DNA from: a virus
Lineage: Duplodnaviria; Heunggongvirae; Uroviricota; Caudoviricetes
Strand: one strand, 5' to 3'
Length of the DNA: 64,000 nucleotides
IMG/VR virus record: IMGVR_UViG_2718217789_000006
Made by a program: the position numbers and the translations under genes. Shown piece after piece: positions 33,715 to 45,511 of this stretch. The notes beneath the pieces are model-generated. The model was not told the origin of the DNA, ran no database searches, and saw only the letters and a list, made by a program, of their open reading frames with translations. Positions within the stretch are counted from its first letter, which is position 1. Each line of letters opens with the position of its first letter.

Positions 33715-36111
33715 TTAAGAATCAGCCTGACTCGGGATCAGTTTTTGCCAGATAACTGAAACGTATTTTGCCTGGTAACGGGCGTCATCAAGTGCATTAT
33801 GGCGCTCACCTTCGAATGGAATAGCCGTTCTGGCATCGAAGTCTATGGCTTTCCCCAGCTCAACGATTGTGCGCACATCGCGATCGTTGTAGTAACGCCA
33901 CGGGCAGGGGATCCCCTGCCGTTCGTATGAACGGCGCAAAATCGTGTTGTCGAAGTTGGCTCCATTTCCCCAGACCTGAACAAAGAATTCACCGGAGTTT
34001 TCGTCGATAAATTCCCGCAATTGTAACAGTGCATCATCTAACGGGATTTCATCGGTCATAATGGCAGATTGCGCTTCGCGTGATTGCTTAAGCCACCATT
34101 TAATGGTGTCCCGATCAATGACTCCGCCAGCAGTTTCCAGATCGATAGTCTTACTAAATTCCGGTCCCATATCTCCGGTTTGCGGATCGAAAAATATTGC
34201 ACCTATTGAGATGATCGGGGCATCAGGATTTTTTCCCATGGTTTCAAGGTCGATCATTAGATGGTCACACGTCCTGCTGGTGGATGTGATAACGTGATGA
34301 CCGTTCACCTTAATTGAGTGATCTGCCGTCTCGCCAGTTTCATTATCGCTATCGTGATGCTGATTGCCGCCAGTGTTCTCCTTGTGTGGATGTTCAGCGC
34401 CTTCCATTTCCTCCGGATCATCTTCCTGAACTTCAACCAGGTTCTTGTCATCGAATGTTTCCTGGTATGTTGCGTCGCCCATCACCGCGCCACAATCAGG
34501 GCAGTTGCCGCCGCCGGTCTGACCGCAGGTGGTGCAGATCTTTTCCGGTTCCTGTTGCACTACTGGTTCAGGTTGTTTCGTTTCTGGCTGATTCTGGTAC
34601 ACAGAATCGCGGGTCTGGATCCCCTTAATCCATTTCGGATCATTCGGGTCGCTAATCCCTTCAACAAATTCTCCGCGAGAGGCAGCCAGTAATTTGTCTG
34701 CATCGACAGGATTTTGGGGCGGAATGTTTTTCCGGGCTTCATGGAGTTCTGCCCGCAGTTTCTGATATTTCGCATCAACAGAATTTACCTGTGACTGAGC
34801 ATCCAGCGGCTGCGTGTCCTGATGATGTTCAGTTGCATCCGGTTCCACTGTTTCAGCCGTTGCCTGTTCATCTGCCATTGCGCAAGATGGTTGCGGTTTT
34901 TCTTCATCATTTTCTTCTTCTGTTTCCTGCTTAGCAGCCAGTTCGCGGTTAACTTCTTCCAGGATATCTTTTTCCGGTGTATGTCGTGCAGCAGTGAGAG
35001 TTTCCTTGCTGGGGTTCTCGTGATCAGTCTCCGTTAAGTAGGCGTTGATATACCCCTGAAGGCGTCCCGGGTAGTGATAAAACTCAGGGTGAGCGCTCCG
35101 GATAAGTGCAAAAATAGCGGCGCGGGAATAGTCCAGAATACCCGGGGTTGCGCGAAGTGCTGCGGACCATTCTTTGAACGGACTTTCTCTTTTCAGGACG
35201 ATTTCTTTTGCGCGACGATAAACGCTGCCCGGAATTTCATAAATATTAAAATCCATCGGAAGTGTGGCTGCTGCAATCTCCACATCCAGCGTATCGAAGG
35301 TGTGTACTAAATTCGGATTGCGATCGGTTTTGTTCCCGCCACCGGCATTTGCACCGGAAGCCGTACGGGTGATACGCGAAACACGATTTCCTTTCATCCA
35401 CTCTTTTGTCAGCAGACCCCGATCAGTGTAGTCAGCGTCCAGGTATGCCTCGAAAAAAGCAGTTATCAGTCCCAGGTCTGAATTACCGGGATTAGGGAAA
35501 ACTTTGTCAGTGTCGCGTGCCAGTTTATGAAGGTCGCGAATCTCCAGCGGGTCGAGCAGCTTTGTGTTGTGGGAAATGGCCAGGGCAGTAACAGCCGGCA
35601 GTTCTTCCGCCCGTGCTATATGTAATGCCTGAAGTTCTTCCCGTGCAACGTGCGTTACTGGTTTTTCGCTGCCGTGTTGCGCAAGCCAGCGAATGGGCAG
35701 CTCCTGACCAGAAACCGGCAGGAGCATATTCTCCTCAATCTCCGTCATGTCTTCGCCGTTGACGTTGGTATTGTCAGTACTGGCTGGTTTCTCCTGCACG
35801 GAGGGAGAGGGCGCGATAAATACCATTGTAATGCCATCTTCCCCGCCTTTTTCGTATCGGTTGCAGAATTCGGTATCAAACACGCCTTCAGGTGGAAGGT
35901 CATTCACAACGGGTAAATGGACGCGAACGGGTTTTTTAAAGTCGTCTTCATCATAATCGTTGTCATCCATTGCGGTAATGCAGCGGGAGATGGCAACAGA
36001 TAATTTTTTTGCTGTAGTCCAGTAAAAACCACCTTTAATTCCCAGACGTTTTCTGACTTTGTCATTTTTTGCTTCGCAATATAGCGCAAATTCTTCTTTA
36101 TCAGTGCTCAT
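33715..36111 (-). CDS. Large early protein with C-terminal DEDDh-type 3'-5' exonuclease domain
   Basis: 798 aa; C-terminal …MIDLETMG…VWGNGANFD…HNALDDARY… (DnaQ-like motifs); acidic central region; CxxC…CxxC zinc-ribbon-like motif [16 protein letters not shown]. Confidence 0.65.
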
Positions 36112-36227
36112 TGATAAACCTCATTACAGATTTAAGGGTGAACAAATCCCTGCCATTGCTGGCATTTTTAATCCGTTGGTATGGTGTTAATATGGCTGGA
36201 GGGTTATCCAGCCGGTGTTTCGTTATT

Positions 36228-36394
36228 CAGGTACAGCGATACTTTTTTTTTACCGGGAGGCATTCACCAGAAATTTTTTGCTCGTCTCTTGCCTGGAGGC
36301 AGGATTCTTTACTGGCATAAATTCCGGTAATCACATTCTGTGATTCACCCGTTATAAGAAAAACCGTCATCATCAGTGCAAATGCTGAAGTCAT
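36228..36394 (-). CDS. Small membrane protein, YdfD-like position (about 55 aa)
   Basis: ATG overlaps the dicB-like stop (ATGA); hydrophobic N-terminus MTSAFALMMTVFLITG…; below ORF-track cut-off. Confidence 0.3.
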
Positions 36395-36579
36395 TGACGT
36401 TCTCCGAAAATACCAAGTTCAAGAAGAGCAATTCGGGAAAGTATGGAATTATCATTGAGCAGATAAGGCTCATATTTCCTCATATTAATGGCATCTTCAG
36501 TAAACTCCCGGTTACTGAGCAGAACACCAATATCAAAACAACCTTCAGACGTATTAACGTTTGGTAATAACGTTTCCAT
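36391..36579 (-). CDS. dicB: Cell-division inhibitor DicB homolog
   Basis: 62 aa, METLLPNVNTSEGCFDIGV…FTEDAIN… closely resembles K-12 DicB. Confidence 0.8.
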   Translation of the reverse strand: METLLPNVNTSEGCFDIGVLLSNREFTEDAINMRKYEPYLLNDNSILSRIALLELGIFGERQ

Positions 36580-36756
36580 TATCGCGTCCTCAACAATGAA
36601 TTTTGTGATGCAGTGCCTGGTGCCTCCAGGTGACGTTAACCAGTTAACAATTAACGCCGGATTAGTTGATGCTCGTTACGCCCGTAAAATACCGCCTTAC
36701 TGCTTTAACTGTTCCGCGTGCGCATAGCCGCATTCACCGCATCACAAAATTCACTT

Positions 36757-36796
36757 TAAAAAGGGCGGATATCCGTTTCCGCCGAATCACCAGAAA
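36757..36796 (-). ncRNA. dicF: DicF-like small RNA candidate upstream of dicB
   Basis: Minus-strand sequence TTTCTGGTGATTC-GGCGGAAACGGATATCCGCC-CTTTTT: DicF-like 5' end plus terminator hairpin and U-run, about 180 nt upstream of dicB. Confidence 0.4.
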
Positions 36797-38215: not shown

Positions 38216-38252
38216 TACCCATAGGTATTTAAAAAGTAAATACCCATGGGTA
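38216..38252. promoter_or_regulatory. OL-like operator pair (TACCCATAGGTA and TACCCATGGGTA) overlapping a leftward promoter
   Basis: Two 12-bp TACC-N4-GGTA sites 13 bp apart at 38216..38227 and 38241..38252; minus-strand TTTACC-17 nt-TAAATA promoter-like elements overlap them. Confidence 0.5.
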
Positions 38253-42629: not shown

Positions 42630-43316
42630 ATGACCCCAATAAAAATATTTATGACTATTGCTGATTTCAAACGGCCTAAATTGGAGCTCCCAAACGGGGC
42701 AAACAAACTACTACTGCACTCTTGCTGTGCTCCATGTTCCGGTGAAGTGATGGAGGCGCTTCAGGCCTCGGGAATCGACTACACCATCTTTTTCTACAAC
42801 CCGAACATTCATCCTCAGAAAGAGTATTTAATTCGTAAGGATGAAAATATTCGCTTTGCTGAACAACACGGCGTGCCGTTTATCGATGCTGATTACGACA
42901 CCGACAACTGGTTTGAACGTGCCAAAGGAATGGAATGGGAGCCTGAGAGGGGGATCCGTTGTACCATGTGTTTTGACATGCGTTTTGAGCGGACAGCGTT
43001 GTACGCTGCTGAAAATGGTTTCAGTGTGATCAGCAGTTCACTGGGCATTTCACGCTGGAAAAATATGCAGCAGGTTAACGAGTGTGGGCGGCGAGCTGTT
43101 GCGCATTATCCGGGTATGGTGTACTGGGATTATAACTGGCGCAAGCAGGGCGGCTCGTCCCGTATGATTGAAATCAGCAAGCGCGAAAAATTCTATCAGC
43201 AGGAATATTGTGGCTGTGTGTATTCTCTGCGCGATACCAATCTACACCGCAAATCTCAGGGACGCCCTCTTATCAAAATTGGCCAACTCCACTACGGAAA
43301 AGAAGAGAAGGAGTGA
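42630..43316 (+). CDS. QueH-like (DUF208) epoxyqueuosine-reductase family protein
   Basis: …[14 protein letters not shown]… and downstream Cys motifs ([16 protein letters not shown]) match the remembered DUF208/QueH signature. Confidence 0.6.
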
Positions 43317-43494: not shown

Positions 43495-44619
43495 ATGCGG
43501 ATGAAAGAATTAAATAAATTCAGAGTGATAGACCTCTTTTGTGGGGCAGGTGGATTATCTTATGGTTTTCTTCATGGAGAGATGTCTGACTACTTTGAAA
43601 GTATCCTTGCTATTGATAATAATGCTGCAGCTATAAATACCTACAATGCCAATTTTGGTTTGCATGGAGTTCAGGCAAATATTGAGGAGTGGGCATCCAG
43701 CAATACTGTTCCTGAGGCTGATGTGGTCATAGGTGGCCCCCCGTGTCAGGGATTCAGTTTATTGAATAAGAATCGTTATGGTGATCACCGAAGAGCATTG
43801 TGGGAGCCTTATATGGATGTCATTGAGCGTTCAAGGGCTTGTATGTTCGTCATGGAAAATGTCCCCGGATTGCTGATAAGCGATGAGTTTGCGGACATTA
43901 CGTTTAGAGCGAAATCCATGGGCTTTATTCTGCTTAATCCAATGGTGTTGAATACTGCTGACTATGGAGTACCTCAGACAAGAAAACGAACGATAGCAAT
44001 CGGTATCAAACGAGAACTCTTCGATGTGCATAGTATTCCGGCGTTCCCGCCAGCACCAACGCATCGTTCCCCTGATAAGGATGTCGCTTTGCCTGAATGG
44101 GTCTGTACGCGTGATGCAATTGGTGACTTACCTGCTCCTGTTGGAACTGATATTCGTAATGAACTTCCTCCGCTGAACTTACATTTTGGGCGTAATCCCA
44201 CACCTGTTTCTCTGGAGCGATATAAAGCGGTTCCACCAGGAGGTAACCGTTTCGATTTACAGAAAAAAAGACCTGATATAACCCCGGCGTGCTGGCTAAA
44301 AAAGAAATCTGGAGGGACCGATTTGTTTGGACGTCTGTGGTGGGACAGACCTTCAGTAACGATTCGTACTGAGTTTTTCAAACCGGAGAAAGGGCGATAT
44401 TTACATCCGGAAGAGGATCGGCCAATAACTCATCGTGAGGCAGCGAGATTAATGTCTTTTCCTGATAATTTCATTTTTACCGGTTCAAAAACTGAGATTG
44501 CAAAGCAGATCGGGAATGCTGTTCCACCGCTATTTGCGGCAAAAATCGCACAATATGTGTATGGAGTTTTGCAGGGACGGTATAAGAATAACATCAGTAA
44601 GAATAGTCAAGCAGCCTGA
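43495..44619 (+). CDS. DNA cytosine-5 methyltransferase
   Basis: Motif I DLFCGAGG, motif IV GGPPCQGFS, motif VI ENVPG; GAGG RBS 7 nt upstream. Confidence 0.85.
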   Translation: MRMKELNKFRVIDLFCGAGGLSYGFLHGEMSDYFESILAIDNNAAAINTYNANFGLHGVQANIEEWASSNTVPEADVVIGGPPCQGFSLLNKNRYGDHRRALWEPYMDVIERSRACMFVMENVPGLLISDEFADITFRAKSMGFILLNPMVLNTADYGVPQTRKRTIAIGIKRELFDVHSIPAFPPAPTHRSPDKDVALPEWVCTRDAIGDLPAPVGTDIRNELPPLNLHFGRNPTPVSLERYKAVPPGGNRFDLQKKRPDITPACWLKKKSGGTDLFGRLWWDRPSVTIRTEFFKPEKGRYLHPEEDRPITHREAARLMSFPDNFIFTGSKTEIAKQIGNAVPPLFAAKIAQYVYGVLQGRYKNNISKNSQAA

Positions 44620-44632
44620 AGGAAATCCAGAA

Positions 44633-45511
44633 ATGAATGGAGATTTGGTTGACAGCATAGTTGGTTTTGCTGAAGCCAGAAAGGAGTTTCATGCCCAATT
44701 GTTACTGAATACGCTCACAATTAATACTGCCGGAGTTGTTAGTAACGCAGATAGCAGTAACAAAAACAGTAAAGCTATAGCAAGAGAAATTGCTCGCTTC
44801 TTGCAGGCTGAAACGATTGGTGAACGTGTTGCAGGGCAAACATCTGGTAATCAGTTTGAGAGTATCTGCGCAGAGTTTATAGAAAAAACCTTTTTTAAAC
44901 TCAGCCACTTACGCCCTGGAAAATGGAATGTACATCAGGTTTCTGGTAGAAACAGATTAGAGATAGCTAAATATGAACAATATGCCCATCTTATAGCATT
45001 GGATAGTGCTGCAAAAAGTAATCCTCAGCTAGCTGCTGCACTGGGGAGTGATTATACGATTTCACCAGATATTATTGTTGAAAGAGAACCTGAATGTGAT
45101 CAAGTTATCAACAGTCCTGAATTACTGGTGGATGATTCTGTTACCCGCATGTCAGCTCTCAGGAGTTCGAATGGTGGGAAACCAATATTACACGCAAGTA
45201 TTTCCTGCAAATGGACAATAAGAAGCGACCGGGCCCAGAATGCTCGTTCTGAGGCATTAAATCTTATTCGCAACCGTAAGGGAAATCTCCCTCATGTAAT
45301 GGTTGTTACTGCTGAGCCTACTCCAAGTCGTCTGGCGTCTATTGCTCTTGGTACTGGTGATATAGATTGCGTGTATCATTTTGCGCTTTATGAACTTATA
45401 TCAGCAGTTGAAATACTGGGGCTCAGCGATGCAGCTGACATGCTTTCCGTGATGGTTAATGGTAAAAGATTAAAGGATATTTCTGATCTTCCCTTGGATC
45501 TTGCAGTCTGA
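44633..45511 (+). CDS. Putative type II restriction endonuclease paired with the methyltransferase
   Basis: 292-aa ORF starting 13 nt after the methyltransferase stop with AAGGA RBS; PD…K-like segment (…SPDIIVERE…ISCKWT…); assignment by context. Confidence 0.45.
   Translation: MNGDLVDSIVGFAEARKEFHAQLLLNTLTINTAGVVSNADSSNKNSKAIAREIARFLQAETIGERVAGQTSGNQFESICAEFIEKTFFKLSHLRPGKWNVHQVSGRNRLEIAKYEQYAHLIALDSAAKSNPQLAAALGSDYTISPDIIVEREPECDQVINSPELLVDDSVTRMSALRSSNGGKPILHASISCKWTIRSDRAQNARSEALNLIRNRKGNLPHVMVVTAEPTPSRLASIALGTGDIDCVYHFALYELISAVEILGLSDAADMLSVMVNGKRLKDISDLPLDLAV

Follow-up and report, generated by a model that had tools for sequence, protein, structure and literature searches.

The gene described here lies on the minus strand of the 64,000-nucleotide stretch of viral DNA IMGVR_UViG_2718217789_000006 (the window), within a lambdoid prophage. 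It probably encodes a domain-swapped member of the RecE family, namely a tethered 3'-5' exonuclease that acts on DNA ends and is not a RecET-type recombinase. The front half of the protein, comprising an N-terminal (N) module, an acidic tether, two helices, and a Cys4 ribbon, is the same as that of Rac RecE; here, however, the tether ends in a DEDDh domain of the DexA/Rv2179c family instead of the PD-(D/E)XK nuclease that partners with RecT. This reading draws on the architecture itself, an intact two-metal DEDDh site, the position of the junction, the absence of an annealase, and purifying selection on both folds. The biological role may lie in the processing of phage DNA ends or in inter-phage defence. 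The sequence is already present in databases, where it is annotated as 'exonuclease', and it is extremely common. We regard the gene as a variant, so far uncharacterised, within a known family and not as a system of a new type. The gene and its segments are:

33715-36111, minus strand: whole gene, 798 amino acids (aa), 89 kDa; PGAP product 'exonuclease', WP_072643151.1
36119-36122, minus strand: ribosome-binding site GAGG, 7 nt 5' of the ATG, read directly from the sequence
34912-36111, minus strand: N module, aa 1-400, a confidently folded two-part domain in the AlphaFold2 model
35545-35943, minus strand: Pfam PF06630, 'Enterobacterial exodeoxyribonuclease VIII', aa 57-189 (E=7.1e-34)
34312-35940, minus strand: homology to residues 50-591 of Rac RecE, aa 58-600, 64% identity (BLASTP against K-12 RecE)
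34783-34911, minus strand: acidic disordered linker 1, aa 401-443; net charge -10, predicted local distance difference test (pLDDT) <50, ratio of nonsynonymous to synonymous substitution rates (dN/dS) 0.57
34672-34782, minus strand: two short basic helices, aa 444-480, common to RecE and to 823-aa DEDDh variants
34492-34536, minus strand: CxxC-x7-CxxC putative zinc ribbon, aa 526-540; pLDDT ~70
34276-34476, minus strand: acidic disordered linker 2, aa 546-612; dN/dS ~1; holds the RecE-homology junction (aa 600)
33718-34275, minus strand: DEDDh 3'-5' exonuclease domain, aa 613-798, with PF16473 over aa 617-788
34243-34251, 33949-33951, and 33784-33801, minus strand: catalytic codons for D621/E623, D721, and H771 to D776, respectively

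The C-terminal domain matches Pfam family PF16473 (Rv2179c-like) with E=1.9e-67 and a score of 226.8 bits against a cut-off of 27, and the match covers 176 of the 177 profile positions. All five residues of the active site are present: D621 and E623 in the Exo I motif, D721 in Exo II, and H771-x4-D776 in Exo III, the spacing that marks the 'h' type. By profile score and by catalytic residues alike, the domain belongs to the DEDDh family, as a first-pass annotation of this DNA had proposed. The five residues align with D7, E9, D119, H186, and D191 of T4 DexA and are invariant or nearly so across the family; hence a proper alignment does not reveal the loss of catalytic residues that would have undone that proposal. 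T4 DexA (PDB 8KEL) was the only solved structure recovered by sequence search (E=1.7e-6 when the single sequence was the query and 1.3e-16 when a family profile was used). DexA (PDB 8KEL/8KEN) and its E. coli homologue EcD belong to this same PF16473 family. However, DexA (227 aa) and EcD are standalone proteins, whereas here the same domain forms the C-terminus of an 89-kDa protein from the early operon of a temperate phage. In addition, identity to DexA is only ~27%, and the extra loops of DexA are missing. Rv2179c of M. tuberculosis also shares PF16473, but the sequence searches of the PDB did not return it. It is a standalone cellular exoribonuclease, with neither a phage context nor a RecE-type N module.

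Domains of the DnaQ/DEDDh family act with 3'-5' polarity. By analogy with this superfamily and with DexA, the C-terminal domain would remove nucleotides from free 3' ends in an Mg2+-dependent, two-metal reaction, and the substrate would most probably be DNA, as it is for T4 DexA. A different substrate is suggested by the name of the best Pfam model, which was built around the Rv2179c 3'-5' exoribonuclease: the protein could be an Rv2179c-like 3' exoribonuclease acting on phage or host transcripts of the dicB-type operon in which the gene lies, or on small RNAs. DEDDh enzymes often take RNA as well as DNA, and TONDO and ISG20 act on RNA 3' ends (PMC13344964). Nevertheless, we regard an RNA-directed role as very improbable. 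The nearest solved relative, DexA, is a DNA exonuclease, and the domain occupies the site of RecE's double-stranded (ds) DNA exonuclease. An Rfam scan of the operon returned no RNA gene at the gathering score, and DicF was not among the matches despite the dicB-type organization.

The N-terminal two-thirds of the protein, to which the first-pass annotation could assign no function, is the N-terminal region of RecE (exonuclease VIII). This identification comes from PF06630, the Pfam signature of that region, from the NCBIfam RecE equivalog model NF007259, and from BLASTP, in which the alignment to K-12 Rac RecE extends over 552 aa and takes in both acidic linkers as well as the CxxC-7-CxxC motif. 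The identity is mosaic, at 80-97% for aa 121-270 and 421-600 and 27-43% for aa 271-420, and nothing aligns beyond aa 600. NF007259 likewise matches aa 1-600 with positions 1-602 of its 877; its score of 991 bits lies below the curated cut-off of 1269, which places the protein outside the RecE equivalogs. K-12 RecE carries PF12684/DUF3799 (residues 615-850) where this protein carries PF16473, and the PD-(D/E)XK 5'-3' nuclease region of RecE (PF12684/DUF3799, residues ~600-866) has no counterpart, there being no similarity after aa 600. Since the similarity to RecE stops at aa 600 and the DEDDh domain starts at the same point, the swap junction falls inside disordered linker 2. A true RecE orthologue was considered and rejected because both the RecE nuclease domain and recT are absent. 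Thus, Rac RecE is a PD-(D/E)XK (DUF3799) 5'-3' dsDNA exonuclease to which recT is translationally coupled, whereas the present protein has a DEDDh 3'-5' domain and no recT.

The whole protein is strongly acidic, with an isoelectric point (pI) of 4.7 and a net charge of -59. Where one acidic, low-complexity segment had been noted previously there are two, at aa ~401-443 and 546-612, and the second carries a net charge of -15. The CxxC...CxxC motif that had also been noted is found at C526/C529/C537/C540. In the full-length AlphaFold2 model, aa 405-442 and 546-633 are disordered, while moderate confidence was reached for helices 444-461 and 471-478 and for the Cys4 region. The DEDDh domain was poorly modelled in this run because few rows of the underlying alignment contain it. 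The Cys4 motif (C526-x2-C529-x7-C537-x2-C540) is conserved in Rac RecE. Since it occurs in just 5 of 36 family representatives, in each case ~79 residues ahead of the nuclease, the ribbon can be regarded as an optional insert in the linker and not as a defining feature. The 823-aa proteins of other E. coli prophages have only aa ~480-798 in common with this protein and begin with a different N-terminus.

Selection has acted unevenly along the gene. In a comparison with a homologue of 92% identity, the N module gave a dN/dS of 0.07-0.19, aa 446-545 a value of 0.21, and the DEDDh domain 0.14, whereas the two linkers gave 0.6-1.0. The protein thus consists of two folded units under constraint and, between them, a tether on which selection is relaxed. 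The 798-codon open reading frame (ORF) begins with ATG, and the claim that it is a real gene is upheld: NCBI holds an identical protein (WP_072643151.1), the gene is present in 1267 genomes, and dN/dS in the folded parts is 0.07-0.21, all of which argues against a chance ORF. These genomes are the members of a set of 5426 complete E. coli genomes in which at least 80% of the gene is covered; some part of it is found in 4736. A lambdoid prophage of E. coli strain 9000 is 100% identical across the gene. ORFs on the opposite strand that overlap 33715-36111 have no supporting evidence and were treated as spurious. The protein had also been called unusually large. However, RecE-family proteins span 700-1150 aa, and so 798 aa is not an unusual size.

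The same data bear on whether the gene is merely a decaying, non-functional recE remnant left by an illegitimate fusion. Many E. coli prophages are defective, and truncated copies of the gene occur, such as one cut after ~415 aa in an O157:H7 strain. However, the ORF is intact in the 1267 genomes and also in the genome of an isolated phage, at least 22 enterobacterial species have proteins of this architecture with 45-80% identity, the folded parts are under purifying selection, and all of the catalytic residues are conserved. We consider the remnant explanation scarcely credible, as it is contradicted by both selection and conservation.

The position of the gene, which had been described as early-left, is confirmed by the order of the operon: repressor, DUF1391, ydfB, ydfC, a 124-aa ORF, dicB, DUF1482/ydfD, the exonuclease gene, xis, int. 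The gene is thus the last large gene of the early-left operon, downstream of the repressor, and its immediate neighbours are:

36391-36579, minus strand: dicB, upstream operon neighbour
36227-36394, minus strand: DUF1482/ydfD-like gene, upstream operon neighbour
33391-33642, minus strand: excisionase (xis) gene, directly downstream of the exonuclease gene
32076-33371, minus strand: tyrosine integrase

No recT, bet, or erf lies between the exonuclease gene and xis. The adjacent annealase (RecT, Bet, Erf, or Sak) that characterizes a SynExo pair is missing, with xis following directly. Elsewhere in the early-left operon, where the other ORFs are at most 124 aa, there was no match to Gam, Abc2, Bet, RecT, or Erf, and neither an annealase nor a RecBCD inhibitor was found in the early-right/nin-like region up to Q. 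RecET resects DNA in the 5'-3' direction and leaves a 3' tail for annealing by RecT. Because an annealase is absent and, by analogy with its family, the nuclease would have the opposite polarity, the protein is unlikely to function as a SynExo/RecET recombinase. The suggestion that it might be a 'recombination or anti-defence protein' is too loose to judge as a whole, but in the specific sense of a RecET-type recombinase it fails on these two grounds. Overall, then, the features listed in the first-pass annotation and their position are sound, while its statements about an unassignable N-terminus and an unusual size are not.

The absence of recT is a general property of genes with a DEDDh head. 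The annealase-less arrangement recurs in further prophages of E. coli, in the genome of an isolated phage, and in relatives at 32-44% identity, and no annealase was found in the operons of 10 relatives examined. In relatives with a RecE-type nuclease, recT abuts the stop codon. A scan of one genome per species, using an alignment of aa 225-345, yielded 56 loci in Enterobacter, Citrobacter, Kluyvera, Klebsiella, Atlantibacter, Phytobacter, Serratia, Sodalis, and other genera. The comparison of heads was limited to loci in which the prophage DNA upstream of the gene extends for at least 7 kb, which left 22 with a DEDDh head and 22 with a RecE-type head. RecT or Bet follows none of the 22 DEDDh-head genes, and all but one of these have int within 36-570 nt. 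In contrast, RecT starts between -40 and +13 nt from the stop codon in 22/22 RecE-type loci (Fisher p ~1e-12 for head type versus recT, not corrected for phylogeny). This 22/22 versus 0/22 split indicates that the unit exchanged is the nuclease head with or without recT, while the N module stays.

Other forms of the heads were also encountered. A standalone 190-aa version of the DEDDh domain, 59% identical, is present in other E. coli phages (L010, 3998-4570) in a yfdP/yfdQ-type early region; since such versions occur, the DEDDh head also circulates as a free gene. A third head is a C-terminal domain of ~240 aa that matches phrog_7838 and phrog_2489 ('exonuclease') and has no Pfam match (L016, 4001-6361; L073, 9956-11347). 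In both of these loci the next gene is Sipho_Gp157. This third head is probably the 'RecE-2' of Zheng et al.

The structure prediction that had been called for was run with AlphaFold2, and aa 1-400 form a confident fold (mean pLDDT 90.7 with a 56-sequence alignment), in which aa 1-103 make up an alpha/beta subdomain and aa 113-400 a helical core. Conservation across genera is strongest at aa ~225-345. Foldseek found no structural neighbour for the N module in BFVD and none in the PDB when the full-length model was used. The N region defines a narrow family, with 267 matches among 1.84 billion representatives of 50%-identity clusters, and its members carry a DEDDh domain, a RecE-type nuclease, or neither at the C-terminus. 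These heads were classified by phmmer on an 81-sequence alignment, with the diversity taken from the 50%-cluster search. The N module itself is acidic (pI 5.1), and for this reason generic DNA binding was rejected and binding to protein seems the better expectation. A Gam-like role as a RecBCD inhibitor was considered and set aside; RecET needs added Gam or recBC mutants.

Within the favoured domain-swap reading, the N module would serve for protein interaction or targeting and deliver the tethered nuclease to the place where it acts, and this positioning would be independent both of RecT and of the polarity of the nuclease. Activity would be timed to expression of the early-left operon, on induction or infection. 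Since selection on the N module persists after the nuclease has been swapped and the annealase lost, the module should have a job that does not depend on RecT or on 5'-3' resection. A bolder reading, which we hold with considerable doubt, is that the RecE-N/YdfE-type module is an unrecognised fold serving as an autonomous targeting platform with swappable heads on a disordered acidic tether, and that the DEDDh form has no part in recombination but is a targeted nuclease weapon. The heads are PD-(D/E)XK, always with RecT; DEDDh, never with RecT; and the ~240-aa third domain, with Gp157. As a weapon, the DEDDh form would serve for defence against competing phages or for their counter-defence, with the N module aiming at a conserved host or phage complex. 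If true, this would also explain the purpose of the 600-residue N-terminus of RecE.

What the DEDDh form might do for the phage is suggested by the distribution of Chi sites. The window as a whole contains 15 plus-strand and 4 minus-strand Chi octamers, whereas its base composition predicts ~1.6 and ~0.7. In the prophage part (31.6-64 kb, or 32.4 kb of a genome that is incomplete in the window), 12 are in the active and 4 in the inactive orientation, with a cluster at 48-54 kb. One of the 12 lies inside the gene:

34276-34283, plus strand: Chi octamer GCTGGTGG

Six of the plus-strand Chi (48144, 48346, 48663, 53612, 54014, and 54061) are located toward the Q/lysis/cos-proximal end. Such clustering near an end matches the terminal clustering described for lambdoid phages in which a Rec module is absent (PMC12315714).

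Chi enrichment and the use of host RecBCD characterize a class of lambdoid phages that have no Rec module (Zheng, Casjens, Davidson, Amundsen & Smith 2025, PMC12315714). There, the LLS class 'no Rec module / high Chi' is delimited by at least 8 active and at most 6 inactive Chi together with the absence of an annealase or anti-RecBCD gene. The present prophage, with 12 and 4 Chi in its incomplete genome and none of these genes found, falls within both limits. The same text mentions genes for DnaQ-like 3'-5' nucleases close to int, as well as 'RecE-2' proteins in which no nuclease can be recognised, and sets both aside. The gene studied here is very probably one of these DnaQ-type genes, which are likewise next to int and outside a canonical Rec module in Chi-rich, annealase-less phages. 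However, the fusion to RecE-N, the exclusion of recT, and the fold and selection of the N module are not described in the consulted sections of PMC12315714. The searchable literature also yielded no characterisation of this fusion, of its complementarity with recT, or of a shared N-module fold or constraint.

In the species census, active Chi are found at 0.45/kb in the ~11 kb upstream of DEDDh-type genes versus 0.25/kb for RecE-type genes (Mann-Whitney p=4e-4), a correlation over related prophages that is not corrected for phylogeny. Tentatively, and with less assurance than the architecture itself invites, the role we favour would be the trimming of 3' ends or tails on the linear DNA of lambdoid phages that have no recombination module of their own and rely on host RecBCD and Chi. 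Several considerations count against this proposal or against the reading as a whole. Besides the uncorrected nature of the Chi correlation, RecE-type loci also carry some oriented Chi. DnaQ-type 3'-5' exonucleases usually antagonise recombination (PMC12315714), which makes end-trimming in favour of recombination speculative. The geometry of the active site is read from sequence alignment, given the poor model of the C-terminal domain. RNA is a possible substrate because Pfam names Rv2179c an exoribonuclease. Finally, a defence function has real weight as a rival, since EcD and ISG20-like DEDDh proteins have been reported to be anti-phage (PMC12153337, PMC13344964).

In this last alternative, the gene would encode a prophage-borne nuclease for defence or inter-phage competition, directed at superinfecting phages, with the N module as its specificity or auxiliary domain. 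It might attack modified DNA, in line with what is proposed for the HREX proteins DexA and EcD, or RNA 3' ends, in the manner of the ISG20-like TONDOs. T4 DexA belongs to the same family as the C-terminal domain, and EcD is reported to degrade DNA containing 5-hydroxymethylcytosine (5hmC) and to protect against T4 even at leaky expression (PMC12153337). Nevertheless, the resemblance to HREX proteins is only partial. Of the DexA residues proposed to recognize 5hmC, W152 corresponds to Y741, which keeps an aromatic, and D169 to A755, in an alignment that is of low confidence in this loop. DexA D90, the tetramer-forming Asp whose replacement has been proposed to account for dimer-only behaviour, is retained as D693 and is not Ala as in EcD. 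The published EcD protein (starting MIDTET) was sought in the window through its cloning primers and is not there.

Prophages and mobile genetic elements of other kinds, plasmids included, do encode DEDDh exonucleases with auxiliary domains that protect against MS2 and Qbeta (PMC13344964). These TONDO/ISG20-like defence exonucleases share the modular logic of the present protein, that is, a DEDDh domain plus an auxiliary domain. However, TONDOs belong to a different DEDDh subfamily, found with an ISG20 query, the candidates derived by BLAST were limited to proteins of <500 aa, and they are specific for RNA phages (PMC13344964). Since the auxiliary domains of TONDOs were reported to be without detectable homology (PMC13344964), no link between them and RecE is known. 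A second defence system, a type II restriction-modification (R-M) pair, is present in the same prophage, and E. coli prophages, even defective ones, have kept the exonuclease gene very widely. However, this gene gave no PADLOC match, and it has its N module in common with a genuine recombination nuclease. Furthermore, the gene sits inside the repressed early-left operon directly upstream of xis-int, where no promoter-like site of its own was found; thus, expression in a lysogen is not expected. Together these observations leave a defence function, although it is the chief rival, unlikely.

Expression from the early operon would fit a lytic function, and the protein could instead be a counter-defence or host-takeover nuclease of lytic growth, for example one that destroys retron multicopy single-stranded DNA (msDNA) or further nucleic-acid components of host immunity, or that scavenges host DNA. 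DexA scavenges host DNA, and Rac RecE degrades msDNA and has itself been discussed in terms of anti-restriction (bioRxiv 10.1101/2020.06.22.160242). However, the msDNA degradation by RecE uses the 5'-3' domain that is absent here, there is no adjacent racC-like blocker gene, and the evidence for such a role is in no case direct. Moreover, temperate lambdoid phages are not, to our knowledge, known to degrade the host chromosome. We judge this explanation improbable.

The present gene bears on a long-standing question. Recombineering relies heavily on RecE/RecT, but what the N-terminal ~600 residues of RecE do has been unexplained since the nuclease domain was defined (review PMC11611040). The 22/22 versus 0/22 division of recT between the two head types provides a natural experiment for finding the job of the N module. 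The results also give a name and an architecture to the 'sporadic DnaQ-type nucleases near int' of the Chi-rich, Rec-module-less lambdoid phages. Many prophages of pathogenic E. coli are among such phages. Should the DEDDh form turn out to serve in defence or counter-defence, a nuclease of this kind would be carried by about a quarter of E. coli genomes.

Other features of the window lie outside this argument. In RefSeq the DUF1482/ydfD-like gene is frameshifted; its 55-aa ORF still matches DUF1482 positions 1-48 of 57. A sub-threshold match to the small RNA STnc100 (31 bits versus 47, E=7e-5) is found at 36547-36765 on the minus strand, just upstream of dicB, and a terminator-like hairpin with a 16-bp stem lies at 38216-38252 (minus strand), between the repressor gene and the first early-left ORF. 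The type II R-M pair, in the nin-like region, was identified by Pfam and PADLOC and consists of a C5-cytosine methyltransferase gene (43495-44619, plus strand) that overlaps a gene for an NgoMIV-family endonuclease (44498-45511, plus strand). Beside it in the early-right region is a homologue of QueH, an epoxyqueuosine reductase (42630-43316, plus strand), an unusual cargo related to tRNA or DNA modification. Just outside int, three tandem DUF1076/NleG-like (U-box effector) genes occupy a low-GC patch (0.38) at 29353-31494 (plus strand) and are followed by a DinI-like gene (31656-32003, minus strand). Plus-strand tail genes (J, lom, and tail fibre; ~25700-32076) reach the int end of the prophage that bears the exonuclease gene, and for this reason the window seems to span two tandem lambdoid prophages or a rearranged junction.

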